A stretch of DNA of 64,000 nt from a virus (lineage: Duplodnaviria; Caudoviricetes). The notes under the pieces are model-generated. The model had not been told where the DNA came from and ran no database searches. It was given only the letters and a program-made list of their open reading frames with translations. Positions 24,102 to 63,259 of this stretch are shown here, in pieces (the stretch's first letter is position 1; every line of letters starts with the position of its first letter). The stretch spans positions 8,923-72,922 of IMG/VR virus record IMGVR_UViG_3300002220_003351; one strand, written 5' to 3'. A program made the position numbers and the translations under genes.

Positions 24102-24332
24102 CTAATTAAAGTCGTACCCGGTTCCATTGCATCTCGGACATTTCTTCCCCTTCCGGATCTTCCAGAGGTGATCCATCCTCCTGATGAAGCACCTGGTCCA
24201 CTTCTGGGCGTACCTGTTTCTGTCGTCCTCTGAGCCGTCCCCGGAATAGACGGCCCCGTGGAGCTTGTTCGCGTACTTCTCGGCGGCGGGGATCAGCCTG
24301 TTCCTTTCGGTTTCGTATTCGAGGTTTGTCAT
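24102..24332 (-). CDS. Small protein with C-terminal CPRCNGTG zinc knuckle
   Basis: 76 aa; operon-like spacing. Confidence 0.6.
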   Translation of the reverse strand: MTNLEYETERNRLIPAAEKYANKLHGAVYSGDGSEDDRNRYAQKWTRCFIRRMDHLWKIRKGKKCPRCNGTGYDFN

Positions 24333-25330: not shown

Positions 25331-25530
25331 ATAATCCCCCTTTCCCTCTGGTGGACCCTCCGGGCCTTCTCCCGATCACCCTGATGGGGCTTGTACTTGT
25401 TCCGGCTCAAAGCCCTCAGTCCGGGCCTGTCCCTGAACAGACGACGATACCAGGGCAGTTTAAGTTCCTGCGTATTGCTGAATATCGTCGCCAACAACGC
25501 TCTTCCTAACGGAACCTGTTCCTGTTTCAT
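25327..25530 (-). CDS. Hypothetical basic small protein
   Basis: 67 aa; ATGA overlaps. Confidence 0.55.
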   Translation of the reverse strand: MKQEQVPLGRALLATIFSNTQELKLPWYRRLFRDRPGLRALSRNKYKPHQGDREKARRVHQRERGII

Positions 25531-26042
25531 AATTTTTCCTCCGGTATCCCTGTTATATAGGCCCCTTGACCCATAGGAATGTTTAGGACGGCCCCCTCCC
25601 CATAATACTTAATTGCAGCCCTGTCATAAGCGGCGGCGGCAGACAAAATATCCCGGTAGGAGCCGCAATGAATTTTTTGTTTTTGATACTTTATTTGCGC
25701 TTGAAATGTTTTGTCTCTTTTGTTGAAGAATACTCCCCTGAACCCGGATTTGTTGTGGCTTTGAAGTTTGCAATTATGCCCATTAAGAGAACGGGACGCC
25801 ACCCGGAGATTGCCCTTCCTATTGTCCAGGCCATTGCGGTTCTTGTGGTCTATAATCTTGCCGTCGCCTTTGGTTAATTTCATAATCTCCCTGTGCAATG
25901 ATGTTCTTGGCTCTCCTGCATATTCATGTCGAGCAGCATAAAAAATATCCTTTGGCCTGAACACATGCCATTTATACCTCGACAACCACTCATAGTCCTC
26001 CGCATCAACGACGGCCACCTTTCCTTGCGTCAGCGGTATCAC
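25527..26042 (-). CDS. HNH endonuclease with AP2 DNA-binding domain
   Basis: IPLTQGKVAVVD; LHREI...IDHKNRNGLDNRKGNLR; SGFRGV...AAAAYDRAA; probable GTG start at 26042. Confidence 0.88.
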   Translation of the reverse strand: MIPLTQGKVAVVDAEDYEWLSRYKWHVFRPKDIFYAARHEYAGEPRTSLHREIMKLTKGDGKIIDHKNRNGLDNRKGNLRVASRSLNGHNCKLQSHNKSGFRGVFFNKRDKTFQAQIKYQKQKIHCGSYRDILSAAAAYDRAAIKYYGEGAVLNIPMGQGAYITGIPEEKL

Positions 26043-26166
26043 TTTCGCGGCTCCGGTCCCAATAAGGGCTATGACATCGGGGGCAAACTCGGACATCTGG
26101 CTTTCGGGGATTCCATTCATAATCACACCTCCTACACTTTAATTGTTTCTTAATGACAACCTTCAT
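26005..26166 (-). CDS. Small zinc-ribbon protein
   Basis: GGAGG RBS; CRRCDYEWNPR...CPRCHSPYW. Confidence 0.7.
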   Translation of the reverse strand: MKVVIKKQLKCRRCDYEWNPRKPDVRVCPRCHSPYWDRSRESDTADARKGGRR

Positions 26167-26181
26167 GATCCCTCCTGTGTG

Positions 26182-26214
26182 ATTATGAATATATTGCTTG
26201 AAATCATTTGTCAA
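26182..26214 (-). promoter_or_regulatory. Putative internal sigma70 promoter
   Basis: TTGACA at 26214-26209 followed by AT-rich TATATTCATAAT upstream of the RBS. Confidence 0.55.
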
Positions 26215-26992
26215 GTTTTTCTTCAGGCGTCCCATAAAGATATGCGGATTGACCCATGTAAGCCGTGAGCCTGAATGACCATCTGTAATTCGGGAGATTG
26301 TCCATGAGGGTCTTCTGGATCTTCCAGAGCCCATCTCTACTGTGGTAGCAGGCGCATGCTATGACCGGGCGACACTTCTTGAACATCCCCATGTTTTGTT
26401 CGATTATCTCAAGCTCCTTGCCTTCCGCATGGATGTTGACTTCTTTTGAGTCCGGGTACATCTCGAATCGTTGCCTCGCCCTGATATCCGCGAGGGTCGA
26501 GGGTTGAGGGGGCGTTGCGAGCTCAACGGGAAATGAGTCCTGGTCGTCCCGCAACACCCTCCACCTAAGAAATTGTATGTAGCCGAGCCACGCATAAGGA
26601 CGGGAACTGTCAAGGAGGATGTTGGATACGTCCGCTATCCCGTTTTTGTCCTCGACGTCCAGTTTCCCAGCCAGCCACCCATTATGGAGCCCCGTCTTGT
26701 CGGCATAGAACTCAAGGATGTCCCACACGGGGACCACATCCGTCCAGCCCTGCTCCTTAAGCTGTTTCTCTATGGGGCCGTAGGGCTCGGAGGCCACACA
26801 GACGGCAACCAGGGAGTTTTCCGGAAGGTCCCATTTTTCGGAGATCCAGGAGCGGACGATCATTTCCTTTCTGTCCAATATCCCCCTGATGGGGATCCCC
26901 AGCTCCGTGAAGATCTCCTCTGCCAAGTGCCCCAATTTGCCATAGCCGTACAAAATTAAGGGCTTGTTGACTTCCCTCGGGCCTATTTCCAT
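26204..26992 (-). CDS. FkbM-like methyltransferase with an apparently deleted SAM-binding core
   Basis: N-terminal LILYGYGKLG; C-terminal IHAEGKELE...RPVIACACYH...LWKI...YLY resembles the FkbM C-half. Confidence 0.55.
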   Translation of the reverse strand: MEIGPREVNKPLILYGYGKLGHLAEEIFTELGIPIRGILDRKEMIVRSWISEKWDLPENSLVAVCVASEPYGPIEKQLKEQGWTDVVPVWDILEFYADKTGLHNGWLAGKLDVEDKNGIADVSNILLDSSRPYAWLGYIQFLRWRVLRDDQDSFPVELATPPQPSTLADIRARQRFEMYPDSKEVNIHAEGKELEIIEQNMGMFKKCRPVIACACYHSRDGLWKIQKTLMDNLPNYRWSFRLTAYMGQSAYLYGTPEEKLDK

Positions 26993-27219
26993 TGCTTCAC
27001 AATCCTTTCCCTGGCGGCGTCCTCGGAGATACTGAGCCAGTGGCAGATCATCGGGAACATCCCCCGTGGTTCCAGGATGAACCTTCGTGCGTCGTCCCGA
27101 TCCCTTGTGGGAAAGGGCTCTTTCGCGTCCTCGATCGCCTTCAGCATCACGGCTGCCCACAAGGCCCCTTCCCCTCCCCTGTCTACCGCTTTTGATTCCT
27201 TGTTCGCGAGTTTAAGCAT
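26983..27219 (-). CDS. Hypothetical protein
   Basis: 78 aa; LWAAVMLKAIED motif common in phage small proteins. Confidence 0.6.
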   Translation of the reverse strand: MLKLANKESKAVDRGGEGALWAAVMLKAIEDAKEPFPTRDRDDARRFILEPRGMFPMICHWLSISEDAARERIVKQWK

Positions 27220-28199
27220 TGGATGAGCTCCTCCGAATAGCAGTCAATATCATCGGGCATGCAGTGGCTCAACTGCCCACACTCTCCGCAGATCCTGTGC
27301 TTCTTCCGGTCCATCTCAAGGTTCATCATCCTGAACTTGTGGAGCTTGGCCCCCTCCCAGATTCTCTTGAACTTCTGCTTTTTGAGGTCCCCTATAATGA
27401 GTTTGCGCTGCCAGTCCAGAAAACAGAGGCTTACGGTCCCGTCGCTGTTGATTGAAAGGGAATAGAAGACATAGGGGCAGACCTGAACCTCCTTGACCCT
27501 GTTCCCGTAGATCCCGATGTCGCTGTCCACCCCTTCGACCTCGTACCCGGGCCAGCAGGGGGCGGTGTGCTCTATGAAGACCCTGTCGGAGATATCCCCG
27601 AAGACCTCGAAGAACCTGTCCCTCTCGGCCTGGGTCATGTTGTCCCCCACGATCTTGACATAGATCAGAAGCTGGCCCTTGTGCCTGTAAAGGTGCCGGA
27701 TGGCCTTTACGAACTTCCCGAACTTCAGCTTGTACCCTGTAAAGTGGTAGTAGGCCTCGGAGGACATCCCGTTCACGGAGATGAAGATCTTGTCCAGGCC
27801 CGACTGGACCAATTTCAGATTGAGCCAGGGGGTCAACAGGGAGCCGTTGGTGGTCGTGTCCACCTGCCCGAACCTCCCGGATTCCTTGGCGTACCGGACC
27901 ATAGCCGGGAAATTCGGGTTCAGGAGGGGCTCCCCATCCTTATAGAGCCTTAACGTCTTAATCGGCTCCGGCATCTTGCAGAGGTCGTCGATGATCTTTT
28001 TGTAGAGGTCCCATTGCATCAGTTGGGGCTTGCGGATTGTCCGGATCTTCGTCCAGTCCCCCGTGGGGCAGAACCTGCAATGGAAGTTGCAGATGTCCGA
28101 AGGATCCAGGAACACCAGATACGGGGTCGAAAGGGGGATCACCGTCTCCAGCCTCGTCCGCCCCTCAAGCTCTATCCTCGGCTTAATCTCGGCCTTCAC
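27183..28199 (-). CDS. Radical SAM protein with SPASM/twitch domain
   Basis: CNFHCRFC; LYKDGEPLL; TTNGSLL; CPYVF...GTVSLC...CGEC. Confidence 0.9.
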   Translation of the reverse strand: MKAEIKPRIELEGRTRLETVIPLSTPYLVFLDPSDICNFHCRFCPTGDWTKIRTIRKPQLMQWDLYKKIIDDLCKMPEPIKTLRLYKDGEPLLNPNFPAMVRYAKESGRFGQVDTTTNGSLLTPWLNLKLVQSGLDKIFISVNGMSSEAYYHFTGYKLKFGKFVKAIRHLYRHKGQLLIYVKIVGDNMTQAERDRFFEVFGDISDRVFIEHTAPCWPGYEVEGVDSDIGIYGNRVKEVQVCPYVFYSLSINSDGTVSLCFLDWQRKLIIGDLKKQKFKRIWEGAKLHKFRMMNLEMDRKKHRICGECGQLSHCMPDDIDCYSEELIQCLNSRTRNQKR

Positions 28200-45139: not shown

Positions 45140-45803
45140 GGTATGTTGCATATGCCATGAGAGCAAATTACTTTCGGCCTTTGGTAAAGATTCTCATTTA
45201 CCTGGAGGCTTAAGATCGTCTTGTAGGGTATGCCATAATAAAAAAAATAAGGAGTGGGCAGATAAAAATAGAGAACAAGTATATTTAGCCACAAGATCAT
45301 GGTATAATAAAAATATCCAACGTACCAGGGATGTTGGGAAGATTTGGCGTGATAATAACAAAGGAAAAAAACGCGAACAGATTAAAAAGTGGCAAGAAAA
45401 CAATCCTGAAAAATGGAGGGCAATGCAACGAAAAGGAAGTAAAAAGCGAAGGAGTACTATGAGCGGTAAAATAAGTGACGCTTTTTCATCAGCAATTTAT
45501 AGATCATTACGTTCAGGTAAGTCCGGCAAACATTGGGAAGAGATTGTCGGATACTCAGTAGAACAGTTAAAAGAACACATTGAAAAGCAATTTGAGCCAT
45601 GGATGTCCTGGGGAAATTACGGGAAGTTTACGTGGCACATAGATCATATTCTCCCCGTTTCTTCATTTAATTATGACTCAACTGAAAGTGAAGATTTTAA
45701 GAAGTGTTGGGCACTTAAAAATCTAAGACCACTAAGGGCGAAAGAAAATCACAGCAAGGGCAGCAAAATAATTTATGGGGACATATTAAATGCCACCAGA
45801 TAA
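45123..45803 (+). CDS. HNH endonuclease
   Basis: CCIC...CRVC; LKEHIEKQF...WGNYG...WHIDHILP...NLRPL...EN..KG; markedly AT-rich. Confidence 0.88.
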   Translation: MDEPFKVCCICHESKLLSAFGKDSHLPGGLRSSCRVCHNKKNKEWADKNREQVYLATRSWYNKNIQRTRDVGKIWRDNNKGKKREQIKKWQENNPEKWRAMQRKGSKKRRSTMSGKISDAFSSAIYRSLRSGKSGKHWEEIVGYSVEQLKEHIEKQFEPWMSWGNYGKFTWHIDHILPVSSFNYDSTESEDFKKCWALKNLRPLRAKENHSKGSKIIYGDILNATR

Positions 45804-48243
45804 TACCCCATTCAAAGTTTTATATGACTATACGGACGTCAAGACCGTGAAGAGGTTTGCGCTCTCAAATGACCGAATTCGTTGCATAATGGGGCCATTT
45901 GGAAGCGGGAAGAGCTCCGGCTGTGTCATGGAGATTGTCCGCAGGGCCAACATGCAGGCCCCCGGCCCGGACGGGATCCGGAGGACCCGGTGGGCGGTGG
46001 TCCGGAATTCCTACGGCCAGCTCAAGGACACGACCATAAAGACCTTCCATGACTGGTTTCCTCCGTCTGTTTTCGGGGAGTGGAGGGTTACCGACCATTC
46101 CTACATCATGACCAAATTCCCGGGGGTTCACTGTGAGGTCATGTTCAGAGCCCTCGATCGGCCGGACCAGGTTTCTAACCTCCTCTCCCTTGAGGTCACC
46201 GGGGCGTGGTTCAATGAGGTGCGGGAGATCCCAAGGACCATCATAGAGGCCATGGACTCCAGAATCGGGAGGTACCCCAGCAAGAGGGACGGGGGCGCAA
46301 CCTGGCTCGGGATCATCATGGACACCAACCCCCCCGACGAGGACTCCTATCTCTACAAGATGTTCGAGAAGGTGAAGCCCGACGGCTGGGCTATATTCAA
46401 ACAACCCTCCGGACTCTCGGCCCATGCCGAAAACCTCAAACACCTCCCAACGGATTATTACAAGAACCTCGCCAAGGGAAAAGACGAGATGTACACCCGG
46501 ATCTATATCCACGGGCAGTACGGGTACCTCGTCACCGGGAAGCCGGTTTTCACCTCCTTCTCGGATAACATTCATGTCGCCCCCCACATTCTCCAGCCCC
46601 AGAAGGGACTTGACGTCCTTTTGGGGTTCGATTTTGGACTCTGCTATGACAACCAGACGGAGGTTATGACGAAAGATGGATGGAAGTATTTTAGAGATGT
46701 TGTTGACGATGATCTCATAATGACCAAGAACTTTGATACGAACAATATCGAGTATCACAGGCCCCTTAAAAGGATATGTAAAAAATACGAAGGCGATATG
46801 TTTCTTTACGAGAATCATAATGTAAATTTTTGTGTTACCCCGGACCACATTATCCCTTGTAGAAAGCGGCATGGAAAGTATGGTAGGACCTTTAACGGAA
46901 ACCATAGAATATCCGCCACCGATTTATTTGACAACGTCTCGAAGCACTATGCTGTTGATGTTCGCGCCGATTGGATCGGGGATTCTTCTGGTGTGTTCGG
47001 CCCCCTTGGCTGGGATGCGTCTGTTTTCGCGGAGTTTATGGGTCTGTATTTAAGCGAGGGAAGTTGTGACAGAAAAACCAACAGGATCAGCATAGCCCAA
47101 AATAAAAATGACGAAGTATTTAATCAGATGCTGGAGCGTACTGGCCTGAGGTGGATCAGAGGTAAAAGGGCGTGGAGGGTATCAAACGAGGTGCTGAACG
47201 AATATCTATCCCGGTATGGGTATTCGCATGAAAAATATGTTCCGGAAGAGATAAAGGGCATGGATGGGAAGGAGATACGGGAGTTTATATTTGCATATAC
47301 CCGTGGCGATGGTCATGTCAGGACAAGAAGTAACGGATCTGAGGAGCATACTGTATTTACGGTTTCGCGTCGAATGGCGGGGGACTTTCAGGAGCTTGCG
47401 CTAAAGGTTGGTTGGCATGCAAAAGTAAGGGTTGTTGGTCCACAGGATTCGGTGATATTTGAAAATGGTGCAGCAAGAAAGATTCGCAACAATGGTGGCT
47501 ACTGCATCACATTCAAGAAGAGGAAAAGCCCATATTCTGAAATCATTAAGACCAATTTTTCAAAGATTCCATATTCCGGGAATGTTTATTGCCTCACCGT
47601 TCCCAACGGTACGCTCTATATTCGTCGCAAGTGGACTCCGAGCTGGAATGGTAATTGTCCGGCAGTATCCGTAGGCCAGATCACCCCGCTGGGGCAGTTG
47701 AGGATCCTCGACGAACTGGTCTCCGACGGGATGGGGTTGAGGCAGTTCTGCGAGAACCAGCTCATCCCCCTTTTGAGGCAGAAGTATTTCGGGATGAACG
47801 TCATGGGGTACGGAGACCCCTCTGGTGCGTCGAGAGCCCCCACGGACGAGACGACCTGCTTCGACATCCTCCACTCCCAGGACATCGGATTAAGGGGGGT
47901 GGAGCCCGCCCCCACAAACGCCATCATCCCCAGGATCGGGGCCGTGGAAGCCTTCCTGAACAAGATGGTGAACGGGGAGCCCGGGTTCCTTCTGTCCCCC
48001 AACTGCCACTTTTTAAGGAAGGCGATGAACGGGGGATACCATTACGAGATCGACCCGAAGTCAAAGGGCGAGGAGATCAAGCCCATTCCCGTCAAGAACT
48101 TCTCCTCCCATGTCTCCGACAGCCTCCAGATGCTCTGTTTATACATCCAGGAAAGAGAATCAAACAACAAGCGGTGGAAGTCCTTTGCGAGCCAGATGAA
48201 GCGAAGGGAGTATCGCCCTGCCAGCACGGAAGCGGGTTATTAG
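45790..48243 (+). CDS. terL: Terminase large subunit containing an intein
   Basis: MGPFGSGKS Walker A; WFNEVRE; DTNPP; GFDFGL RuvC motif; GDPSG; HVSDSLQ. Confidence 0.95.
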   Translation: MPPDNTPFKVLYDYTDVKTVKRFALSNDRIRCIMGPFGSGKSSGCVMEIVRRANMQAPGPDGIRRTRWAVVRNSYGQLKDTTIKTFHDWFPPSVFGEWRVTDHSYIMTKFPGVHCEVMFRALDRPDQVSNLLSLEVTGAWFNEVREIPRTIIEAMDSRIGRYPSKRDGGATWLGIIMDTNPPDEDSYLYKMFEKVKPDGWAIFKQPSGLSAHAENLKHLPTDYYKNLAKGKDEMYTRIYIHGQYGYLVTGKPVFTSFSDNIHVAPHILQPQKGLDVLLGFDFGLCYDNQTEVMTKDGWKYFRDVVDDDLIMTKNFDTNNIEYHRPLKRICKKYEGDMFLYENHNVNFCVTPDHIIPCRKRHGKYGRTFNGNHRISATDLFDNVSKHYAVDVRADWIGDSSGVFGPLGWDASVFAEFMGLYLSEGSCDRKTNRISIAQNKNDEVFNQMLERTGLRWIRGKRAWRVSNEVLNEYLSRYGYSHEKYVPEEIKGMDGKEIREFIFAYTRGDGHVRTRSNGSEEHTVFTVSRRMAGDFQELALKVGWHAKVRVVGPQDSVIFENGAARKIRNNGGYCITFKKRKSPYSEIIKTNFSKIPYSGNVYCLTVPNGTLYIRRKWTPSWNGNCPAVSVGQITPLGQLRILDELVSDGMGLRQFCENQLIPLLRQKYFGMNVMGYGDPSGASRAPTDETTCFDILHSQDIGLRGVEPAPTNAIIPRIGAVEAFLNKMVNGEPGFLLSPNCHFLRKAMNGGYHYEIDPKSKGEEIKPIPVKNFSSHVSDSLQMLCLYIQERESNNKRWKSFASQMKRREYRPASTEAGY
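46642..47655 (+). mobile_element. 338-aa intein with LAGLIDADG homing endonuclease in TerL
   Basis: Starts CYDNQTEV, block B CVTPDH, DOD motifs FMGLYLSEGS and AYTRGDG, block F VYCLTVP, ends WNGN followed by extein Cys. Confidence 0.93.
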
Positions 48244-50571: not shown

Positions 50572-51153
50572 ATGACTCTTGACGAGAAATTGCAGATCAC
50601 GGCGAGCGGTGTCCAGGGGCAGACGCGGGAGAAGTTCGGTTCCATTGAGAAATTGTGCCAAAATGCCCCGCTGGAGGGCAGTATCATAGAGGTTGGCGTC
50701 TGGAGGGGTGGGATTGCGAGACATCTGGCCGATATTTTCCCGGGAAGGAAGATATTTCTGGCCGATACGTTCACCGGGATACCGTATGTCTCTAAGTATG
50801 ACAACCACTACCGTGTGGGGAGCTTCAGCGATGTCGACATAGAACAGGTGCGGAGCATATTCCCCGAAGAAAACGCTGAAATACTCCAGGGTATCTTTCC
50901 GGGGGAGTTTCAGGGGCGACTTGACGGGGAGAGGTTCGGCGTGGTGCACCTGGATGTGGACGTCTATCAGGGGTACAGGGACAGCCTGGAGTTCTTGTAC
51001 CCGAGAACCGTTTCAGGGGGGCTTGTTATGCTTGACGACTACAAGTGCCCGCTCACCGAGGGCGCCACGATAGCCGTGGATGAGTTCCTCTCGGATAAAC
51101 CCGAGAACGTCCTTTTCCTTAACTACCAATTCTACTTTATCAAGGAGGGGTAG
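50572..51153 (+). CDS. TylF/MycF/NovP-family sugar O-methyltransferase
   Basis: IIEVGVWRGG; ADTFTG; VHLDVDVY; MLDDY. Confidence 0.88.
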   Translation: MTLDEKLQITASGVQGQTREKFGSIEKLCQNAPLEGSIIEVGVWRGGIARHLADIFPGRKIFLADTFTGIPYVSKYDNHYRVGSFSDVDIEQVRSIFPEENAEILQGIFPGEFQGRLDGERFGVVHLDVDVYQGYRDSLEFLYPRTVSGGLVMLDDYKCPLTEGATIAVDEFLSDKPENVLFLNYQFYFIKEG

Positions 51154-51656: not shown

Positions 51657-52631
51657 ATGCCAGAGACAGATCCCAATGACAGAGGGGCATTGGAAAAAGT
51701 CGACGAAGCGGATAAGGCATTTTCTGACGCATTCGATGCGGCAGGAGTAGGGGAGGCTGACCCGAATAAGGCAGCCGTCCCGGCAGAGGAGCCCGAAAAG
51801 AAGGAGGAGCCTCCCAAAAAGGAGGAGCCGCCCGCCGCAAAAGTCGACGAGAAGGCCGAGGAGGAGAAATACGAACAGCGCTACAAGTCTCTCCAGGGGA
51901 TCCACAAGCACGACCGTGAAACCTGGGAGCAAGAGAAAACGCGACTCGTATCCGAACTCGAAGAGGCAAAGAAGGGCGCTCCTAAAAAAGAGGAACCCAC
52001 AGAGAAAGAAAAGAAGGCAGCTCAGGACTTCGTTGACTCTCTTACTGACGAGCAGAAGGAGCAACTGGAGGAGTATGAGAAAGACTTCGATGTGGTTTCC
52101 AAAATGGAAGGGCTCAAGAGATCCGTTGAGCTTGCCAAACTCCGAAAAGAACTTCAAGACTGGAAAAGCGAGATTACGGAAAAGCTCGAAGAGCAGGGGA
52201 AGAAGATCATCCCTGTCACGGAGTTCGCGGCAAAAAGCGAGACGGCGGCCCACTTCAACATCATCAGGAACGGTTACCAGAGAGAGGATGGAACGCAGGT
52301 CGAAGGTCACCCCGATTTCGAGAAGTATCGGGATGACGGGTCCTTGCTGGCCTGGATAGAATCCAAGCCCAAGTACATGCAGAAATCCCTCAAGGAAACC
52401 TACGAGCATGGGATCGCCACCGACGTGGTGGATCTCTATAACGACTTCAAACGGGAATCCAACATCCAATCAGAGCCCCCCGAAGGCAAGGTCGTCGACA
52501 TCGACAAGGCCAAAAAGAGGCAGGCGCTCACTTCTGTCCCCACGAAGAAGGGGGCCGTCAACACCTCCCACAAGCTGGCCGATGACTTTGAAGGAGCCTT
52601 CGACGAGGCCCTGCATAAGCAAGGAGGGTAA
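51657..52631 (+). CDS. Capsid scaffolding protein
   Basis: Acidic coiled-coil 324-aa protein immediately upstream of the capsid gene; HPDF motif. Confidence 0.8.
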   Translation: MPETDPNDRGALEKVDEADKAFSDAFDAAGVGEADPNKAAVPAEEPEKKEEPPKKEEPPAAKVDEKAEEEKYEQRYKSLQGIHKHDRETWEQEKTRLVSELEEAKKGAPKKEEPTEKEKKAAQDFVDSLTDEQKEQLEEYEKDFDVVSKMEGLKRSVELAKLRKELQDWKSEITEKLEEQGKKIIPVTEFAAKSETAAHFNIIRNGYQREDGTQVEGHPDFEKYRDDGSLLAWIESKPKYMQKSLKETYEHGIATDVVDLYNDFKRESNIQSEPPEGKVVDIDKAKKRQALTSVPTKKGAVNTSHKLADDFEGAFDEALHKQGG

Positions 52632-55239: not shown

Positions 55240-55824
55240 ATGGCTTTCAAATACGTTGGAAAAAAGTTCGATGATGCGGATCCGAAGGTCGATCAGGCCG
55301 GTAGGAAGGTCTACGGGGCGTTTCCTTTTGAGGCTATCCGCAGGGCCGTTCAGGGCATTGCCAACAGGGTTATCGGCACCACGTCAGGCACCGCGAGTTC
55401 TTCGGGGTACTTGAAGCTTGCCGGATGCGGAACCGGCGGAACGGGAGTTGCGATTGCCAACACGGTGGTCGTTTTGATTAACGGGCAGTACAGCACCTGT
55501 ATCGCCCAGGATCCCCTCACCCTTCCCGATGGGTCTCAGGGGAGCAATACGGTTGCCAAGTACCTCATCTGCACCTCGACCGGCACCTCCGCGACATGCA
55601 TTGGTCCGGGGAATGTCGTCGATAAAGGTGACTATGCCAGTGCGACTCTGGCGGCTGCGGCAGCCAAGCTTCCCGATCTTCCTGACGGATACTGCGCCCT
55701 CGGGTATGTCACCCTGAACGCCCCGGCCGCGTCCGCGATCACCTATCGCGGCCACGGGACCATCGGGTCTCAGGGAACCACGTCGTTCACGGATCTCGTC
55801 TGCATGCCGTATGACGGGAGTTAG
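55240..55824 (+). CDS. Putative capsid decoration protein
   Basis: AGGAGG RBS; position after the capsid gene; Gly/Thr-rich beta protein. Confidence 0.65.
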   Translation: MAFKYVGKKFDDADPKVDQAGRKVYGAFPFEAIRRAVQGIANRVIGTTSGTASSSGYLKLAGCGTGGTGVAIANTVVVLINGQYSTCIAQDPLTLPDGSQGSNTVAKYLICTSTGTSATCIGPGNVVDKGDYASATLAAAAAKLPDLPDGYCALGYVTLNAPAASAITYRGHGTIGSQGTTSFTDLVCMPYDGS

Positions 55825-55831
55825 TAACCAC

Positions 55832-55853
55832 GGGCGGGGGTAACACCCCGCCC
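55832..55853 (+). terminator. GC hairpin, possible intrinsic terminator
   Basis: GGGCGGGG-gtaaca-CCCCGCCC just after the stop; weak U tail. Confidence 0.5.
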
Positions 55854-55877
55854 TTAACACCTTAAGGGGGAAAGGTC

Positions 55878-56219
55878 ATGCCACGCAAAGAGAGAACGGA
55901 TCAGGAGCTCCACCCGGAGAAGTATTTTACGAGCCCACAGGGGCATGTCAGGGACCGGATTGTCCTTCATGAGAGCGAAAGGATCCCCAGAGAGGGTCAG
56001 TTGATTTCCCTCAACGGGTTTGCCTTCCTGGCCAAGGCGGGGGTCCCCATTGACCTCCCGAGGCCGGTTCGCCTCATGATCGACACTTTGATCGAACGGC
56101 AGACGCTTCAGGGCGACGACGGCAAGGAGTACACCCGCGATATCCCGAGGTTCACCTACACCTTGGTGAAGGAGGGGGTCAACCTTCCCGAAGAAACCGC
56201 ACCCGTCGATGGAGGATAG
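55878..56219 (+). CDS. Conserved head-region protein
   Basis: 113 aa; RBS; follows the capsid module. Confidence 0.7.
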   Translation: MPRKERTDQELHPEKYFTSPQGHVRDRIVLHESERIPREGQLISLNGFAFLAKAGVPIDLPRPVRLMIDTLIERQTLQGDDGKEYTRDIPRFTYTLVKEGVNLPEETAPVDGG

Positions 56220-56222
56220 CAC

Positions 56223-56966
56223 ATGGTCGGGAAGGATCTGATCGCAGTTTTAAGGGAGACCCATCTGGACGACCAGAAGCTCCCGTATCTCTGGCAGGAT
56301 CCCGAGCTTCTGAGGAACATCAATTACGCCGAGGTCCAGGCCTGCCGCAGAGCCCATCTCATCATCGACTCTTCCACGGCCAACGACTCCGGGACTGCCG
56401 GGACGGCAAGCACCATGGGACAGAGGCCCCTTTGCACGCTTTCAATCACTGCGGGTACAGCAATCTACAACCTGAGCTCGAAGATCCTGCAAGTCAAGAG
56501 ATGCCAGCTCGCCTCGATGACGTACCCGCTTAACGGCCCGTTAACCTATCCGGCCCTTGACGATTACGCCTCGGGCTGGATGGGTACGGCGGGATCCATC
56601 GGGACCGCCGGGTCCGGAGGATACCCGTGGGGGTTCTTGAACGAGCCCGGGAACACGATCACCTTTGTCCCGGCCCCCTCGGCAAGCGACACGGCGTACC
56701 TGGTCGTGTCGAGGCTCCCTTTGGTCCCCATCACCTACCAGACGCCGCCCGAAATCGACGAGCAGTACCACATCGACATTCTGGACTGGGCGGCCCACCT
56801 GGCGTTCATGAAGCCGGATTCCGACACGCAGGAGCTGAATCTGGCAAAGGTTTATGAAGACAAGTTCACGAGCAAATTCGGGCCTCTTCCGGACGCATAC
56901 AGCGAAAGGATGAGGAAGACCCTCCTCCAGCGGCAGAGGATGAGGCCGAGGGAGTTCGGGTCGTAA
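56223..56966 (+). CDS. Putative head-to-tail adaptor
   Basis: LWQDPELLRNINYAEVQAC...PEIDEQYH..ILDWAAHLAF..PD pattern typical of adaptors. Confidence 0.7.
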   Translation: MVGKDLIAVLRETHLDDQKLPYLWQDPELLRNINYAEVQACRRAHLIIDSSTANDSGTAGTASTMGQRPLCTLSITAGTAIYNLSSKILQVKRCQLASMTYPLNGPLTYPALDDYASGWMGTAGSIGTAGSGGYPWGFLNEPGNTITFVPAPSASDTAYLVVSRLPLVPITYQTPPEIDEQYHIDILDWAAHLAFMKPDSDTQELNLAKVYEDKFTSKFGPLPDAYSERMRKTLLQRQRMRPREFGS

Positions 56967-56991
56967 TGCACCCTCACAAGGAGGATTTGAA

Positions 56992-57186
56992 ATGGCGATC
57001 AAGAAGGCAACAAAGGTATCCCCTGTCATCTATACTGGCTCTGCGGAGCCCAACGCGGCTGGCATCGAGCCTTCCAAGGTCGGTGATCTTTACATCCGTG
57101 TCCACTCCGGGGCCGGTAGCGCCGGTATCTATTTCTGCAAAACGATATCCGGAAGCAAGAAATGGGGGACCGCAGGCACGGGCTGA
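56992..57186 (+). CDS. Small virion protein
   Basis: 64 aa; GAGGA RBS; GDLYIR...IYF...WGTAGTG. Confidence 0.65.
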   Translation: MAIKKATKVSPVIYTGSAEPNAAGIEPSKVGDLYIRVHSGAGSAGIYFCKTISGSKKWGTAGTG

Positions 57187-57199
57187 TTTCCCTATAACT

Positions 57200-57221
57200 G
57201 TGGGGAGGCCGTCCTCCCCAC
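57200..57221 (+). terminator. Hairpin, possible terminator
   Basis: GTGGGGAGG-ccgt-CCTCCCCAC. Confidence 0.5.
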
Positions 57222-57242
57222 TTCATCCACGAGGACGAAGCT

Positions 57243-57611
57243 ATGGAACGACGAATCACGACGAGACCTCTGTTCAAATCCACCACAATCAAGGCAGGCT
57301 CTTCAGGGACATCTGACATAATCGACCTCCGGGATGTCTCAAAGGAGGGCGGGTTCTCGATGTCTTGGACCATCGCCCCGGCAGGCGGGATTGCCACCTG
57401 CGGGACGGCCACGTTCAAGTACCTGTTGAGCCCTGTCTACGATGGGACCTACACTACTCCGACTGGAGGGACCCATGGCACGTCCACGGGTGTCTCCGGG
57501 AATAGCAACTGGGTGTCATTCACTCCCCCCGTCGCCCCTTTCATGAAAGTCATGTGTGACATGGGGACGAGCGGAACGGCCCTGGTGACTGCTGAACTGC
57601 ATGTCAGATAA
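57243..57611 (+). CDS. Virion beta-sandwich protein
   Basis: 122 aa; GAGGA RBS. Confidence 0.65.
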   Translation: MERRITTRPLFKSTTIKAGSSGTSDIIDLRDVSKEGGFSMSWTIAPAGGIATCGTATFKYLLSPVYDGTYTTPTGGTHGTSTGVSGNSNWVSFTPPVAPFMKVMCDMGTSGTALVTAELHVR

Positions 57612-57623
57612 GGGGGTGAGGAG

Positions 57624-58001
57624 ATGGCATTTCAGCGGCTTTCCTTAGTGAGAGGCGATTCGGACAACTACAGCGTTACGTTCAAGAGGTCCGACGGGAC
57701 CCTGTACAACATCAAGAACTGGACGGTGTACTTCACCCTGAAGACACACGCTGACCTGTCTGATTCTCAGGCCTCCCTCCAGAAGATCGTCACGGTTTTC
57801 GACGACACCACCTCCGGGACTTCCGGGTCTGCCAATATCCCGTTTTACCCTCCGGACACAATCAAGCTCGATATCGGGGAGTATGACTTTGACATCAAGG
57901 TCTGTACCGCCCCCGGAAGCCAAAACTACACCATCCGAAGGGGGAAGCTGGACCTTGAGCAGAATGTGACAGGAACCTATGGTACTGCGGGTACTGCATG
58001 A
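57624..58001 (+). CDS. BppU-like Ig-fold virion protein
   Basis: RGDS..YSVTF...WTVYFTLK...GEYDFDI...GKL pattern. Confidence 0.65.
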   Translation: MAFQRLSLVRGDSDNYSVTFKRSDGTLYNIKNWTVYFTLKTHADLSDSQASLQKIVTVFDDTTSGTSGSANIPFYPPDTIKLDIGEYDFDIKVCTAPGSQNYTIRRGKLDLEQNVTGTYGTAGTA

Positions 58002-60658
58002 TGGATATTGAAGTCACTCTCGATAGCTCGAAAGACATATCCGCCACGATAGAGTCCGGGAAGAACCTCTCTGTCGTTTTTGAACATGCTGGTCCCGCAG
58101 GGGCCTCCGGGTCGAGCGGGTCTGCCGGGACCCACGGCACCTCGGGTACTTCAGGAACGTCCGGTTCCAGTGGACTGGACGGGACCTTCTACGGGTCGTC
58201 GGGGACTTCGGGGACCGCCGGATCTTCCGGGTCGAGTGGAACGGCGGGAACCTCGGGGTCTTCCGGGTCTTCCGGGGACTCGGGTTCGTCCGGGACTTCA
58301 GGAACAGACGGCTCCCATGGGACCTCTGGTACAAGCGGGACTTCTGGAACGGCGGGGAGTTCTGGCTCCTCGGGCACGCATGGCACATCCGGAACGAGCG
58401 GAAGTTCGGGCACCTCTGGAACGGACGGATCTCATGGCACTTCGGGGTCAAGCGGTTCCAGCGGGTCTTCTGGGACCAGCGGGACGGCGGGAACCAGCGG
58501 TTCCAGCGGAAGCTCCGGATCTTCCGGCACGCACGGGACATCAGGCACAAGTGGGACTTCGGGCTCGAGTGGAACGGCAGGATCTTCTGGGAGCTCCGGG
58601 CAGAGCCTTACCCCCAAGGGGGACTGGGCTGTTTCCACCGGGTATGTCTCGGGGGATGTCGTTTCCAACGACGGGGTGATGTACGTCGCCCTCCAGAATC
58701 ACACCTCCACTGCTGATGACGAACCAGGAACCGGGATAAACTGGGAAACCTACTGGAACACGCTATCGGGAGCAGCCGGGTCTTCTGGGACCTCTGGCAC
58801 CTCCGGCATCTCGGGATCAAGCGGGACTTCGGGGACCTCCGGCACTTCCGGAAGCTCCGGGTCAAGCGGGACTTCCGGATCGAGCGGAACCTCCGGCGAC
58901 TCGGGGTCGAGCGGAACGAGTGGGTCAAGCGGATCTTCGGGGGATTCCGGATCAAGCGGCACAAGCGGAACCGATGGGTCTCACGGAACCAGTGGCACAT
59001 CAGGGTCTTCGGGTTCTTCCGGGTCAAGTGGGTCTTCTGGCACTCACGGGACTTCAGGTTCTTCGGGGAGCAGCGGTAGTTCTGGGACCCACGGCACCTC
59101 AGGTACCCCCGGTTCATCTGGCTCCTCGGGGACCTCCGGTTCTGCCGGGAGCCACGGTTCGAGCGGCACCTCGGGGACCTCAGGGTCATCTGGGAGTTCC
59201 GGCACATCCGGCACTTCGGGTACTGACGGAACGAGTGGTTCATCTGGGTCGTCCGGCTCCTCCGGGACCTCGGGTACCGATGGTTCCCACGGAACTTCAG
59301 GCACTTCCGGGTCGTCAGGCACAAGCGGTTCCTCTGGAACCCATGGGACATCAGGTACAGGTACATCGGGAACCTCTGGCTCTTCCGGGAGTTCCGGGTC
59401 CTCTGGGACAGACGGGTCTCACGGCACATCTGGCACGAGTGGAACGTCGGGATCAAGCGGCAGTTCTGGCACTTCGGGGACCCACGGCACTTCGGGTTCT
59501 TCTGGAAGCAGCGGCTCCTCGGGCACTTCAGGGACGGGCGGATCGTCCGGTTCATCAGGGACATCGGGCACGGATGGGTCCCACGGAACCTCCGGCACCT
59601 CAGGGTCAAGCGGATCTTCCGGAACAGATGGCTCACATGGAACCTCCGGAACCTCCGGAACAAGCGGGACCTCCGGGTCTTCGGGAAGCTCCGGAAGCAC
59701 GGGGACCCATGGCACATCTGGGTCCTCCGGCTCATCTGGGGAGAGCGGCACATCGGGTACATCCGGAACGGACGGGACCTCCGGGACCAGCGGTACTTCC
59801 GGGGAGACCGGGACATCCGGAACCAGCGGGTCAAGCGGGGCGACCACGATTACTGGCGGTGTTCTGCATACCCAAGACGAGGCGGGGACGGCGTGGGCCA
59901 TAGCCCACAACCTCAACTTCAAGTACGTCGGGGTGTTTGCCATCATTTCCGACGAATTGGTCTCCCCGGAAAAAGTCGAATATGTCGACGAGAACAACTG
60001 TAATGTCTACTTTGGAACCTCATCGGTCTCCGGGTATGCTGCGGTTGTCGTCGGTGGGGGTTCCAGCGGGACATCAGGTACGAGCGCGGCGGGCTCAAGC
60101 GGGACCTCCGGCACTTCCGGGACGGCTGGGAGCAGTGGGACATCTGGCGGGGGGACCTCTGGCACGTCCGGGACGAGTGGGAGCTCTGGAGAAACATCCG
60201 TCACGGGAACTCACGGAACCTCAGGGACATCGGGGACCGACGGGACTCATGGCACCTCAGGAACCTCTGGTACGGATGGGACTCACGGGACCTCTGGAAG
60301 TTCCGGTAGCTCGGGAACCTCCGGCACGGCGGGGTCCTCGGGCACCAGCAGCACCCATGGAACCTCCGGTACATCTGGAACCAATGGGACCCACGGGACA
60401 TCAGGCACTTCGGGATCTTCGGGGTCTTCAGGTTCTTCTGGGTCGTCCGGAACTTCGGGTACGGCTGGGTCCTCCGGAACCAGTTTCGGTACAGCGGCAA
60501 CGGCGGCTTTTTTGATGATCTCCGGGACCCAGAGTGACGCGGGGACCATCGGAAGCAAGGGGTATGTGGTTAATGTCTATTACGGGACGGCGGCTACAAG
60601 GGCGGCAGGGGTTTCAGGGGTTTTGAGCGGATCGGTTTATTTCCAGATTACGTTGTAG
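57998..60658 (+). CDS. Tail/head fibre with long Gly-[S/T]-[S/H/D/A] collagen-like repeats and a CBM5/12-like module
   Basis: 886 aa; Gly every third residue over hundreds of residues; GDWAVSTGYVSGDVVSNDGVMYVA; HTQ...WAIAHNL. Confidence 0.85.
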   Translation: MMDIEVTLDSSKDISATIESGKNLSVVFEHAGPAGASGSSGSAGTHGTSGTSGTSGSSGLDGTFYGSSGTSGTAGSSGSSGTAGTSGSSGSSGDSGSSGTSGTDGSHGTSGTSGTSGTAGSSGSSGTHGTSGTSGSSGTSGTDGSHGTSGSSGSSGSSGTSGTAGTSGSSGSSGSSGTHGTSGTSGTSGSSGTAGSSGSSGQSLTPKGDWAVSTGYVSGDVVSNDGVMYVALQNHTSTADDEPGTGINWETYWNTLSGAAGSSGTSGTSGISGSSGTSGTSGTSGSSGSSGTSGSSGTSGDSGSSGTSGSSGSSGDSGSSGTSGTDGSHGTSGTSGSSGSSGSSGSSGTHGTSGSSGSSGSSGTHGTSGTPGSSGSSGTSGSAGSHGSSGTSGTSGSSGSSGTSGTSGTDGTSGSSGSSGSSGTSGTDGSHGTSGTSGSSGTSGSSGTHGTSGTGTSGTSGSSGSSGSSGTDGSHGTSGTSGTSGSSGSSGTSGTHGTSGSSGSSGSSGTSGTGGSSGSSGTSGTDGSHGTSGTSGSSGSSGTDGSHGTSGTSGTSGTSGSSGSSGSTGTHGTSGSSGSSGESGTSGTSGTDGTSGTSGTSGETGTSGTSGSSGATTITGGVLHTQDEAGTAWAIAHNLNFKYVGVFAIISDELVSPEKVEYVDENNCNVYFGTSSVSGYAAVVVGGGSSGTSGTSAAGSSGTSGTSGTAGSSGTSGGGTSGTSGTSGSSGETSVTGTHGTSGTSGTDGTHGTSGTSGTDGTHGTSGSSGSSGTSGTAGSSGTSSTHGTSGTSGTNGTHGTSGTSGSSGSSGSSGSSGTSGTAGSSGTSFGTAATAAFLMISGTQSDAGTIGSKGYVVNVYYGTAATRAAGVSGVLSGSVYFQITL

Positions 60659-60665
60659 GTAGATT

Positions 60666-61445
60666 ATGGCCATTGAAATTATAGGGACACCGCAAGTAGG
60701 CAACACCAACAATGGCGCAGATGTTACGCTTACTTGGTCGACCCGTCCCTCCGAAGGAGATTATACGATCGTTGTCATCGGTTCCCCAGCGCCCTCAGCC
60801 GCTGTCGGAACTGTATCTACAACGGGTTATGACGTTGTATCTGGCGCCACGCATGCTGGGGCGGCAGCGGCCAACCCATCTCTGGTTATTTACTGGAAGA
60901 AACAAGGGGCGACTACCGACACAACTGTGGTTGCAAATGCCGCCAACAGTAACACGGTGGATACTTCCGCCATCGGGTTTGTTTTGAGGGGTGTTGACAG
61001 CACGACCCTTCTGGATGCCGTCACGGCAACCGCAGGGGAAACAACCAGCACAAATCCGGACCCTGCTTCAATAGCAGGTGCAAGCGCCAATTTCTGCACG
61101 ATTGTCGCCGCCTGTATGACGGCTGTGAAAGACACTTCCATTACCGCGCCGAGCGGATATACTGGTTATTCACAAGTCGGTGACGATATCTACGACCACA
61201 CTTTGGCCGCCGCTTATAAATTAAACTGCAATGGAACGGAAGCCCCTGCTTCGTGGACAGACTGGGGTTCTGGACTGTGGTATGCGATCACAATAGCGAT
61301 AAAGCCCGCGCCTGCCCCGACGATAAGCGCAAAGGTCATGGTTGACGGGGTTTGGAAAACGGTGTCTTCGGCCCTGGTGATGGTCGGCGGGACATGGAAG
61401 GCGGTATCCTCTATCAAGACGATGGTTAATGGGGTGTGGAAATGA
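60666..61445 (+). CDS. Tail-associated beta protein with a C-terminal triple VxGxWK repeat
   Basis: 259 aa; VDGVWK/VGGTWK/VNGVWK. Confidence 0.7.
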   Translation: MAIEIIGTPQVGNTNNGADVTLTWSTRPSEGDYTIVVIGSPAPSAAVGTVSTTGYDVVSGATHAGAAAANPSLVIYWKKQGATTDTTVVANAANSNTVDTSAIGFVLRGVDSTTLLDAVTATAGETTSTNPDPASIAGASANFCTIVAACMTAVKDTSITAPSGYTGYSQVGDDIYDHTLAAAYKLNCNGTEAPASWTDWGSGLWYAITIAIKPAPAPTISAKVMVDGVWKTVSSALVMVGGTWKAVSSIKTMVNGVWK

Positions 61446-63259
61446 AAGACTACGGCAAGGAGTTCACCGGCAAGACGATACTGGAGTCCCTTGCGACCCT
61501 CCCGGCCCATGCTGCGGCCGACGAGGGGAGGATCGTCTACGCTGAGGATGTCGAGAAGACCTACTACGGCAAGTCCGATGGATGGGCCGAGTGGGGGACT
61601 TCCGGGACCTCTGGAACTTCGGGCACCTCGGGGACAAGCGGCTCATCAGGCACCTCTGGTAGTACGGGGACCCATGGGACATCGGGTAGTTCCGGTACAT
61701 CTGGTAGTTCCGGCACTTCTGGGACAAGCGGATCATCAGGATCGAGCAGCACCTCCGGCTCAAGTGGAACATCCACAACGGCGGGCCTTGCCGCAACAGG
61801 GGGCACGGCCGCCTACGCCACGTCCTCAGGAAACTCCGGATCTGCCGCAGGGGCAGGCACTTCTTCTTACGCCACCACTGCCGGGCAGGCCGGGACGGCA
61901 GTCAAGGCCACCTCAGCGGGGAACGCGGGGACGTCCTACGCCTCTACGCAGGCGGCAAGTGAAACCGTATCCGGTGTAGTTGAGTTAGCTACCGTTGCTG
62001 AAGCTCTCGCCGGAACCGACGGGACAAGAGTCGTCACCCCCGCCGGGGATGCCGCCGCGCTTGCGAACCTCAAAACGCACGACACCCCCAACGCCATCGA
62101 GCAAATCCTTGATTATTCCGCCGGGAAGAACTACCAGAACCATGTGGTCTATATCCCCCCGTTCACGACCACGGATGTTTCCGGCGTGACCTTCGGCGGG
62201 TTCCAGGTTGACAAATATCCAAACTCCCAGCCCTCCGCGATCAACCAGGCGGGGGATGCGTGGTATGACATCGCACACAGCACCACGCCGGGATCGGTTC
62301 CGGGGATCTCGAAGCCGGGCGTCCCGGTATGGGACTATATCAAGTTCCCCTTTGCCATGATCGCCGCGTGCAACAAGGGCAAGGGCTGGCACTTGACCTC
62401 CGCGTTCGAGTGGGCCGCCCTTGCGCACTTGGCCAAAAAACAGGGCACGATGCCTCACGGGAACAACAGCAATCTCGACCCGCCGAGCGATTCCGTTTAT
62501 ACAACCGAGCTTGGCATCCTCGATGCCCACCTCCACAACGAAAACGGCACCTATCATCGCACCCTCCCCGGCAGCGGCCCTTCGATCTGGGCGCACAACC
62601 ATCTCCAGAACGGGGTGTACGATCTCAATGGCCTGGTGTGGGAGTGGGTGTTGATGCTGATGTCAACCGACGGATACCCCTATGTCCCGGCGAACCTCAA
62701 TGTGAGTTATGTCGGATCACCCTACGGACGCGGGACAATCAGCGGTTCCGGCGGGGCCACGCCGACGCTTACCTGCGATGGGGCCGGAGTAAACTGGCTG
62801 AAGGCATGGACCGTCGATGAGTTCAATACTGCTTGTTACTGCTATATCGCGGAAGCGGCGGGCGGCGCAGGAGCGCTGTACGCTGTAACGGACACGACCG
62901 CCACGACGCTCGTTCTCACCGCCAGCGATGCGCCGGGGGACGGGACGGCGACCTTCTGCATTTTCAAACTGGTGGCCACGGACATCACGAACGGGATGAC
63001 TACCGGGCAAAAAATCTTGACGCTGCGCGATTCCGATGCGGACCTGAAGGGATTTGCGCTCCCCGCGACCGCTGACGGTACGGGAGCGGCGGCTTATGGG
63101 AACGACATTTTCTACTTTGACAAAGCGGCCCTGCGCGCAGCGATCCGTGGCGGCAACTTCGGCAGCGCAGCCGGCGCGGGGGTGTTTGCCCTCTACTTGC
63201 TCAGCGTCCCGTCGGACTCGGGCTACTACTTCGGGTTTCGCGCCGCAAAGGCACTCTGA
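61442..63259 (+). CDS. Tail fibre/receptor-binding protein with G-T-S repeats, a fibre repeat and a C-terminal C-type-lectin (FGE-sulfatase-like) domain
   Basis: ASETVSGVVELATVAEALAGTD..RVVTP; GGFQVDKY; HLTSAFEW; DLNGLVWEW; RGGNF...GFR. Confidence 0.85.
   Translation: MKDYGKEFTGKTILESLATLPAHAAADEGRIVYAEDVEKTYYGKSDGWAEWGTSGTSGTSGTSGTSGSSGTSGSTGTHGTSGSSGTSGSSGTSGTSGSSGSSSTSGSSGTSTTAGLAATGGTAAYATSSGNSGSAAGAGTSSYATTAGQAGTAVKATSAGNAGTSYASTQAASETVSGVVELATVAEALAGTDGTRVVTPAGDAAALANLKTHDTPNAIEQILDYSAGKNYQNHVVYIPPFTTTDVSGVTFGGFQVDKYPNSQPSAINQAGDAWYDIAHSTTPGSVPGISKPGVPVWDYIKFPFAMIAACNKGKGWHLTSAFEWAALAHLAKKQGTMPHGNNSNLDPPSDSVYTTELGILDAHLHNENGTYHRTLPGSGPSIWAHNHLQNGVYDLNGLVWEWVLMLMSTDGYPYVPANLNVSYVGSPYGRGTISGSGGATPTLTCDGAGVNWLKAWTVDEFNTACYCYIAEAAGGAGALYAVTDTTATTLVLTASDAPGDGTATFCIFKLVATDITNGMTTGQKILTLRDSDADLKGFALPATADGTGAAAYGNDIFYFDKAALRAAIRGGNFGSAAGAGVFALYLLSVPSDSGYYFGFRAAKAL

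Follow-up and report, generated by a model that had tools for sequence, protein, structure and literature searches.

The virion genes of an uncultured phage (Duplodnaviria; Caudoviricetes), recorded as a 72,922-bp linear contig in IMG/VR (IMGVR_UViG_3300002220_003351), encode a short recurring peptide, G-T-[A/S]-G-[T/S], which we consider here as a candidate acceptor site for protein O-glycosylation, together with a large glycosyltransferase encoded in the same late operon. The stretch of DNA analysed, referred to below as the window, comprises 64,000 nucleotides (nt; bases 8923-72922 of the contig). Its positions are used throughout, except for genes at the start of the contig, upstream of the window, which are numbered on L002 (G000 being this phage, G000:C1:1187-5314 is the same interval as L002:1187-5314). 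The structural module lies on the + strand and starts at window position 45790 with an intein-bearing terminase gene, followed by genes for the portal, a TylF-type methyltransferase, a scaffold-like protein and the major capsid protein (phrog_1357). After the capsid gene come those for two proteins of 194 and 113 residues (amino acids, aa), the SU10-type adaptor, three small proteins (64, 122 and 125 aa), the collagen-like fibre of 886 aa, a 259-aa protein, a second fibre of 607 aa and a holin-like open reading frame (ORF). The module resumes at the contig start with an endolysin, the glycosyltransferase (1375 aa), tail proteins and a 2531-aa internal protein ending at window position 13289.

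The tag in the virion proteins

We counted every G-T-[SAH]-G as a strict tag and obtained the expected counts from shuffles within each protein. The original prediction had proposed that at least seven virion proteins share such tags, placed in the loops and tails of otherwise unrelated folds. Every peptide it quoted is found in the translation of the ORF named for it, and the four small neck proteins encoded between 56223 and 58001 do carry strict tags, whereas the 194-aa protein encoded directly after the capsid gene (55240-55824, + strand, as are all the virion genes described here) has near-tags only (GTTSGTASSSG, GTGGTG and GTSA; no strict tag); further tagged proteins lie outside the set it had considered. 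The description of the folds as unrelated was fair, since they include an SU10-type adaptor, an immunoglobulin (Ig)-like sandwich and a jelly-roll-like sandwich. Homologues of the 194-aa protein in related phages have 1-3 strict tags, at conserved G-T-x-G-T positions.

The head-to-tail adaptor (56223-56966; SU10_adaptor family, Pfam PF24175, E=1e-17) has three strict tags, with 0.02 expected. Its first tag region, GTAGTAS (aa 57-63; 56391-56411), falls within an insertion of about 15 residues that is absent from the adaptors of outgroup phages, and its second, GTAGSIGTAGSGG (aa 121-133; 56583-56621), occupies a loop that is also an insertion relative to the outgroups. Residues G121, T122, G127, G130 and G133 of this second region are invariant across 25 homologues, and in other homologues the loop is expanded with further tags. 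For placing these loops on a solved adaptor structure there was one marginal match (26fb_T, E=0.0025), which we left unused. The 64-aa protein (56992-57186) ends, by its translation, in WGTAGTG (57163-57183), with one strict tag against 0.03 expected; nine of ten homologues share the C-terminal W-G-T-[A/C]-G-T, and the remaining ORF (L022) stops short of the position.

The 122-aa beta-sandwich protein (57243-57611) contains GSSGTS (57297-57314), GGTHGTSTG (57465-57491) and GTSGTA (57564-57581), which amount to two strict tags against 0.05 expected. In its AlphaFold model, an eight-strand sandwich with a predicted local distance difference test score (pLDDT) of 86.5, GSSG and GTSG lie between strands and GTHG at a loop-strand boundary. 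The fold was also considered as a guide to the place of this protein in the virion and proved uninformative, being a generic jelly-roll or Eph-LBD-like sandwich. The 125-aa protein (57624-58001), an Ig-like protein of neck/collar type whose top structural matches are Ig-like proteins of phage connectors and baseplates, has a loop tag, TSGTSGS (57810-57830), and a C-terminal one, GTYGTAGTA (57972-57998), giving two strict tags against 0.01 expected. Its model (pLDDT 80) is least confident, among internal stretches, in the loop that holds the internal tag (residues 61-70, mean pLDDT 65), and residues 118-125, at the C-terminal tag, are disordered. In the models of these two proteins the tags are thus exposed, in loops and in a disordered C-terminal tail.

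G120, T121 and G123 of the 125-aa protein are invariant in 33 homologues of 40-70% identity, with all four glycine codons and three threonine codons in use at the conserved tag positions. This invariance of G-T-x-G at such divergence, while synonymous codons are freely used, indicates that selection acts on the tag as a peptide. The 125-aa gene and the 886-aa fibre gene overlap in an ATGA (57998-58001), where the stop codon of the former runs into the start codon of the latter, and the GTAGTA-ending protein and the fibre are therefore probably translationally coupled. Elsewhere in the module, a single GTSG (aa 186-189; 1876-1887) in a 416-aa tail-module protein (1321-2571) is a weak, lone occurrence, and two tail proteins encoded upstream of the window (L002:6240-6671 and L002:6683-7162) have two tags each.

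The same triplets form long arrays in the two fibres. The massive arrays that had been noted in the ORFs at 57998 and 61442 are indeed present, as Gly-X-Y repeats of the Pfam Collagen type, and both proteins contain Gly-X-Y runs of the kind that defines PF01391. The 886-aa tail fibre (57998-60658; Pfam Collagen E=1e-83; CBM_5_12; PHROG tail-fibre families) has proline-free GTS/GSS arrays at aa 32-616 and 699-829 (58091-59845 and 60092-60484). It comprises 217 Gly-X-Y triplets in runs of 11, 46, 66, 53, 7, 4, 16 and 14, with Thr (118) or Ser (85) at X and mostly Ser (163) at Y, besides His (20), Ala (12) and Asp (12); the whole protein has five prolines. Its CBM_5_12 carbohydrate-binding module (aa 210-245; 58625-58732) is placed between two collagen-like arrays. 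In the 607-aa fibre (61436-63259) an N-terminal GTS/GSS array, matched by Pfam Collagen, has 17 triplets at aa 54-104 within a repeat region reaching aa 111 (61595-61768), and the C-terminal part is a phrog_2889 domain. The short tags are not collagen, because they consist of only two to four triplets, or a run of up to six in the adaptor loop. A stable triple helix needs more than two to four Gly-X-Y triplets.

Enrichment and gain of the tag among related phages

The adaptor has more than 280 metagenomic homologues. A scan of viral contigs with a single protein yielded no close relatives, and a profile was needed; with a profile the scan gave 80 loci, and ten whole contigs were fetched (G001-G010). 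The first six, G001-G006, have capsid proteins 70-88% identical to that of this phage and share its structural module, and most of its replication genes have no detectable homologue in them. Long collagen arrays are found only in this phage, G005 and G010, and G001-G004 and G006 are tagged without them; the tags are therefore not mere by-products of the fibres.

The non-virion proteins of this phage, about 9,100 aa in all, contain no strict tag. Over this phage and G001-G006, all near-complete, the virion block (the 32 kb downstream of the terminase start, array proteins excluded) has 105 tags per 67,943 aa and the rest of the genomes three per 75,491 aa, that is 1.55 versus 0.04 tags per 1000 aa, a 39-fold difference (Fisher p = 3e-30). 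GTAG is the most frequent 4-mer in the non-collagen virion proteins of the phage, with eight copies, while each of its eleven anagrams occurs 0-2 times, so that local richness in Gly, Thr, Ser and Ala does not account for the tags; together, the anagrams and the within-protein shuffles rule out a pure composition effect. A motif at the level of DNA was likewise ruled out, as codons vary among tags and among homologues.

Over 135 tags from nine related genomes, the consensus is two or three successive G-T-[A/S] units, with Ala commoner than Ser at the third position and Thr as the invariant hydroxy residue. The same pentapeptide is found in at least seven unrelated families, and 13 of the 135 tags are six or fewer residues from a C-terminus. 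We also considered the tag as a cleavage site for a prohead protease and dropped this idea, given the tags at extreme C-termini and in tail fibres and the lack of any recognised protease gene.

Alignments point to the gain of tags as small insertions. Compared with distant homologues (DPTNG..), the 125-aa protein has gained three residues at its internal tag (DTTSGTSG), one relative has an eight-residue loop insertion holding GTAGTAGT, and in some homologues the C-terminal tags are duplicated. Adaptor homologues have 0-6 tags each, the tag loop growing in repeats, and an inserted domain of 125 residues adds four more. Both tag regions of the adaptor are insertions in alignment with G007, G008, Acidovorax phage AP1, Pseudomonas phage Rollin and Pseudoalteromonas phage Y3. 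The tags thus behave as portable units.

Tagged genomes have 12-19 tags in total where 0.5-2.2 are expected. In the outgroups, namely G007, G008, the complete genome of Y3 and those parts of Rollin and AP1 that were fetched, the count is 0-2 where about 1-1.5 would be expected, and there is no enrichment. Homologues of the 1375-aa glycosyltransferase are present in every tagged relative fetched whole, at 42-57% identity (52-57% in G001-G006). The outgroup records have no match to Glycos_transf_1 and a sole, sub-threshold match to Glycos_transf_2, in AP1; no TibC-family enzyme was found in the outgroup phages and no radical S-adenosylmethionine (radical-SAM) match in G007, G008, G009 or G010. 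An intermediate group of loci (L067-L072), with adaptors 36-38% identical to that of this phage, is heavily tagged, and one of its short contigs reaches a homologue of the glycosyltransferase.

A TibC-type glycosyltransferase, its bacterial relatives and a sugar cluster

The 1375-aa glycosyltransferase is encoded just upstream of the window (L002:1187-5314, + strand), in the late operon between lysis and tail genes. It consists of an N-terminal GT4 domain split by an intein, a middle part and a C-terminal domain of TibC/Aah type. Pfam places the intein, which has a LAGLIDADG endonuclease, within residues 274-608 (Intein_splicing and LAGLIDADG_3); a LAGLIDADG_3 segment, probably a second intein, also lies at aa 496-549 of the large terminase (817 aa; 45790-48243). 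The C-terminal 320 or so residues of the glycosyltransferase match TibC (PDB 4RAP_A; phmmer E=1.2e-35, query 114-427 to chain 63-394, about 315 residues) and the NCBIfam profile TIGR04414, "autotransporter strand-loop-strand O-heptosyltransferase" (E=6e-56, positions 42-373 of 374). TibC-family enzymes are protein glycosyltransferases; in TibC, Asp-110 is the catalytic base, Thr-226, Lys-230, Arg-286 and Trp-305 bind ADP-heptose, and Cys-339, 342, 358 and 370 hold iron (PMC4358343). Asp-110, Thr-226, Lys-230 and Trp-305 are conserved in the phage enzyme and all nine of its phage relatives, and so are the four iron-finger cysteines, the pattern C-x2-C...C...C aligning column for column. There is no autotransporter gene beside the phage enzyme, its neighbours being virion genes. 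A TibC-type domain essentially identical to that of G010 is also found, with tagged virion genes, on a 68-kb contig labelled as a Nitrosotalea sp. metagenome-assembled genome (L124, JAHEYD010000005.1), which is probably a phage contig mis-binned into an archaeal genome.

A profile of the phage TibC-type domains retrieved 52 loci from prokaryotic genomes, 19 of them closest to the phage enzymes and 33 others. Fourteen of the 19 closest loci have tags or G-[TS]-x arrays in their fetched flanks, and in twelve of these they are arrays of 6-68 triplets. By comparison, an array of four or more triplets was found at none of the 33 canonical, autotransporter-type loci (Acetobacteraceae, Burkholderiaceae and Selenomonadaceae). 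Small lipoproteins, encoded no more than about 3 kb from the enzyme gene, carry the arrays in Arenicellales, Acidiferrobacterales and other Gammaproteobacteria, and consist of a signal peptide and a Cys lipobox, followed by (GTS/GTA/GSS)n and a poly-Asp tail; Bacteroides-binned contigs have long, fibre-like array proteins. A stand-alone TibC-type enzyme is flanked by array lipoproteins at L130, L131 and L136-L141 (for example L140:11157-11768 and L140:12110-12571, - strand), and a sigma-54 two-component system and a DUF6502 gene are found near the array locus L140. One array locus stands among ordinary cellular genes on a 5.2-Mb gammaproteobacterial chromosome, and its enzyme, from Arenicellales, scores 314 bits on TIGR04414. 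The enzyme-lipoprotein loci of Gammaproteobacteria may be a cellular counterpart of the phage system.

In a maximum-likelihood tree the canonical enzymes (29 rows) stand apart from a 30-row clade of all the phage and array-linked enzymes (support 100/99). Since both kinds belong to one supported clade, the pairing of the enzyme with (G-T/S-x)n has survived deep divergence and the change from virion to cell envelope. Among the points that can be drawn from sequences, this pairing is the strongest argument that the repeat unit would be the substrate of the enzyme.

On the - strand of the window, Pfam matches define a 15-kb candidate donor-sugar cluster (13282-28199). It encodes a glucose-1-phosphate nucleotidylyltransferase, a nucleoside-diphosphate-sugar 4,6-dehydratase, a C-methyltransferase, a CmcI-type O-methyltransferase and a GT4 enzyme, as well as five radical-SAM enzymes, two of B12 type and three of SPASM type, with a DNA methylase and an HNH gene interspersed. 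The C-methyltransferase, the dehydratase, the nucleotidylyltransferase and the CmcI methyltransferase are each present in five of the six genomes G001-G006, and a 412-aa B12 radical-SAM enzyme in all six. A TylF-type sugar O-methyltransferase gene (50572-51153, + strand; Pfam PF05711, E=6e-20) is located far from this cluster, in the head module between the portal and scaffold genes; among the relatives fetched, tblastn finds a homologue only in G008.

Readings of the tag and comparison with known systems

We predict, with moderate confidence, that G-T-[A/S]-G-[T/S] is a portable acceptor tag for protein O-glycosylation, and the most economical reading is that it is read by the TibC-type domain, the GT4 domain or both. 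The 1375-aa enzyme would be made from the late operon along with the virion proteins, would recognise exposed tags, both in surface loops and in disordered C-terminal tails, and would then put sugar on their Thr/Ser hydroxyls; on the proline-free GTS/GSS fibres, which would be the mass-acceptor form, it would act hundreds of times over. The donor sugars probably come from, or are tailored by, the sugar cluster and the TylF methyltransferase. More tentatively, we propose a fuller scheme as possible, in which a distinct branch of the TibC family reads the sequon G-T-[A/S]-G-T, a large clade of uncultured phages coating their neck, tail and proline-free collagen-like fibre proteins with a phage-made, methyl-branched deoxysugar glycan, and free-living Gammaproteobacteria using the same pair on (GTS)n lipoproteins. 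That such a coat would serve shielding or adhesion is speculation; it might stabilise the fibres, shield against proteases or immunity, or act in adhesion.

The original prediction had offered either O-glycosylation or a radical-SAM modification like that of ribosomally synthesised and post-translationally modified peptides (RiPPs). Its glycosylation half is supported in every computational test that was proposed with it: tags are enriched in virion over non-virion proteins beyond composition and anagrams, and alignment with phages that lack the enzyme reveals the adaptor tags as insertions, in a setting of outgroups without enrichment. The TibC-type enzyme in the virion operon and the bacterial pairing have come in addition.

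Several points weigh against glycosylation of the tags by this enzyme. The attachment of sugar at the tags is itself a prediction. The enzyme scores 190 bits on TIGR04414, below the 200-bit NCBIfam equivalog cut-off; the position of TibC Arg-286, retained in the canonical and the Arenicellales array-linked loci, is occupied by Thr in this enzyme and by either Thr or Ser across the phage clade, and Asn stands at the stereo-selectivity position, on account of which the donor and specificity of the phage enzyme may differ from those of TibC. In TibA, Ser but not Thr is modified by TibC (PMC4358343), a precedent at odds with a Thr-centred tag. Neither the major capsid protein nor the portal of this phage is tagged. 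A TibC-type fusion in Microcystis phage Mel-JY01 scores 317 bits on TIGR04414, and the virion genes of that phage show no GT[SA]G enrichment, so that the tag is not replicated there. G007 and G008 have, directly upstream of the adaptor gene, an ORF of 515-565 aa (G007:C1:33898-35445, that is L108:13898-15445, - strand; G008:C1:13662-15359, L111) with a methyltransferase-like N-terminus and a weakly GT9-like C-terminus, yet no tags; its terminal Cys pattern recalls the iron finger, but it does not belong to the TibC family by NCBIfam and is barely alignable to the phage enzyme. The correlation of tag and enzyme among adaptor-related phages amounts to about one evolutionary event, with one tagged clade and the tagged group L067-L072, and the pairing of enzyme and array is likewise that of one clade rather than of many independent origins. 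A homologue in G009 (G009:C1:39047-40069, that is L115:19047-20069) of the scaffold-like protein (window 51657-52631) has six tags, four of them in its N-terminal half; on a protein not expected in the mature particle, these would be odd if tags served only that particle. Finally, the sugar cluster could serve another target.

The tags might instead be structural or assembly motifs, whether as mini-collagen or docking strands for a common virion partner or as a favoured loop or linker sequence of the clade, an explanation that we find unlikely while granting it some weight. Tags and collagen-like fibres share one triplet unit, each family has its tags fixed at homologous sites, and two of the tags end small neck proteins adjoining the fibre genes. 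Gly-rich loops are, moreover, common in virion proteins. A structural role explains conservation at fixed sites, but not repeated insertion into unrelated proteins or the bacterial pairing. The presence of the pentapeptide in at least seven unrelated families, newly in variable loops and inserted domains, fits better with one reader acting in trans; relatives that lack long collagen arrays are still tagged; disorder is predicted for the C-terminal tag, and a few triplets would not hold a triple helix; and the association of a TibC branch with (G-T/S-x)n lipoproteins in bacteria is left unexplained.

It is very unlikely, in our judgement, that the glycosyltransferase and sugar cluster act on a host surface polysaccharide or on phage DNA, with the tags arising from neutral slippage of 9-bp repeats in a module rich in Gly, Thr and Ser. 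Phage glycosyltransferases do often modify DNA or host O-antigen (PMC12619734), and the arrays expand and contract among relatives. However, the tags stay invariant over 40-70% divergence with free synonymous change and are hence selected, no base-hypermodification gene (hydroxymethylase, TET-type) was found in the replication module, and the enzyme, which is of a family of protein glycosyltransferases (PMC4358343), is encoded in the late virion operon. We give least credence to the proposal that the radical-SAM enzymes of the phage modify the tags in a RiPP-like way (C-methylation, epimerisation or cross-linking at Ser, Thr or Gly being examples), with or without glycosylation: there are five such genes, one of them, for the 412-aa B12 enzyme, conserved throughout G001-G006, and there is weak similarity to the RiPP maturases ApyD, WgkB and PapB, but similarities to sugar and cofactor enzymes (AprD4, BlsE, MoaA, twitch-type) are equally good, no family cut-off, that of any peptide maturase included, is reached, all five genes lie inside the nucleotide-sugar cluster, tblastn finds homologues of the SPASM enzymes (296, 322 and 338 aa) at most in G001, G002 and G004 and not in the likewise tagged G003, G005 and G006, there is no leader peptide or precursor-type architecture, and no radical-SAM gene is present among the nine neighbouring ORFs tested at the bacterial array locus L140.

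With glycosylation of the tags as the favoured reading, several known systems offer comparisons. Both fibres contain uninterrupted Gly-X-Y arrays, as is typical of phage tail fibres with collagen-like proteins (PF01391). Thr-rich collagen-like repeats can be heavily O-glycosylated, as in BclA of the Bacillus exosporium. Unlike those of other collagen-like proteins, the arrays of this phage are nearly pure G-[T/S]-[S/A/H/D], with practically no proline or charge pairs, and the short tags of two to four triplets sit inside globular proteins. In Gram-positive cocci the GT4 enzyme pair GtfA/GtfB starts the dense O-glycosylation of long Ser/Thr-rich repeats in serine-rich-repeat adhesins; a GT4-type enzyme is likewise present here, and the repeats of this phage have Gly at every third position. 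If our reading is true, it would account for how the proline-free Gly-Thr-Ser "collagen" fibres found widely in environmental phages might gain stability or protection.

The bacterial autotransporter heptosyltransferases (BAHT) use ADP-heptose as donor, form a dodecameric ring and have as acceptor Ser in the beta-helix of an autotransporter encoded close by. The phage domain is homologous to the enzymes of the TibC-TibA and Aah-AIDA-I systems of E. coli (BAHT; TIGR04414; PDB 4RAP/4RB4; PMC4358343) and keeps their catalytic and iron-finger residues, and like them the phage enzyme would hyperglycosylate hydroxy residues in repetitive segments rich in Gly, Ser and Thr. It differs from them in being fused behind an intein-containing GT4 domain within a 1375-aa protein, with no autotransporter; in its presumed acceptors, a five-residue tag in loops and tails together with collagen-type arrays, in which Thr rather than Ser is invariant; and in the replacement of Arg-286 by Thr or Ser in the phage clade, with a score just under the equivalog cut-off. 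We found no literature linking a TibC-type enzyme or this tag to phages. If the reading is true, the substrates of the TibC family extend past virulence autotransporters to phage particles and bacterial lipoproteins.

In mycobacteriophages, according to secondary descriptions (Freeman et al. 2023, Cell Host Microbe, via PMC12619734 and PMC11256854), phage-encoded glycosyltransferases glycosylate the C-termini of capsid and tail-tube proteins. Phages Che8, Corndog and Myrna, as described there (PMC11256854, PMC12619734), likewise direct their own enzymes to their structural proteins, C-terminal tails included, and acquire a glycan coat. The present phage encodes glycosyltransferases and has C-terminal tags on its 64-aa and 125-aa proteins; its enzymes would, on our reading, similarly act on its own structural proteins. 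As far as those secondary descriptions allow the two to be set apart, its capsid is without a tag and the candidate targets are neck, tail and fibre proteins, in place of capsid and tail tube, and it has a short sequon recurring in many proteins and a large deoxysugar pathway. Virion glycosylation in mycobacteriophages and BAHT enzymes in bacteria are thus known already. As glycosylation of virions by phage enzymes has been demonstrated only in a few mycobacteriophages, the phage described here would, if our reading is true, provide a second system, in which the novelty would lie in the action on virions of the well-understood TibC/Aah family, in a short transferable sequon pasted by evolution into many unrelated proteins and in a dedicated sugar pathway to which much of the genome is given over; such a glyco-tag of five residues, its transferase being known, could then also be a useful tool for protein engineering.

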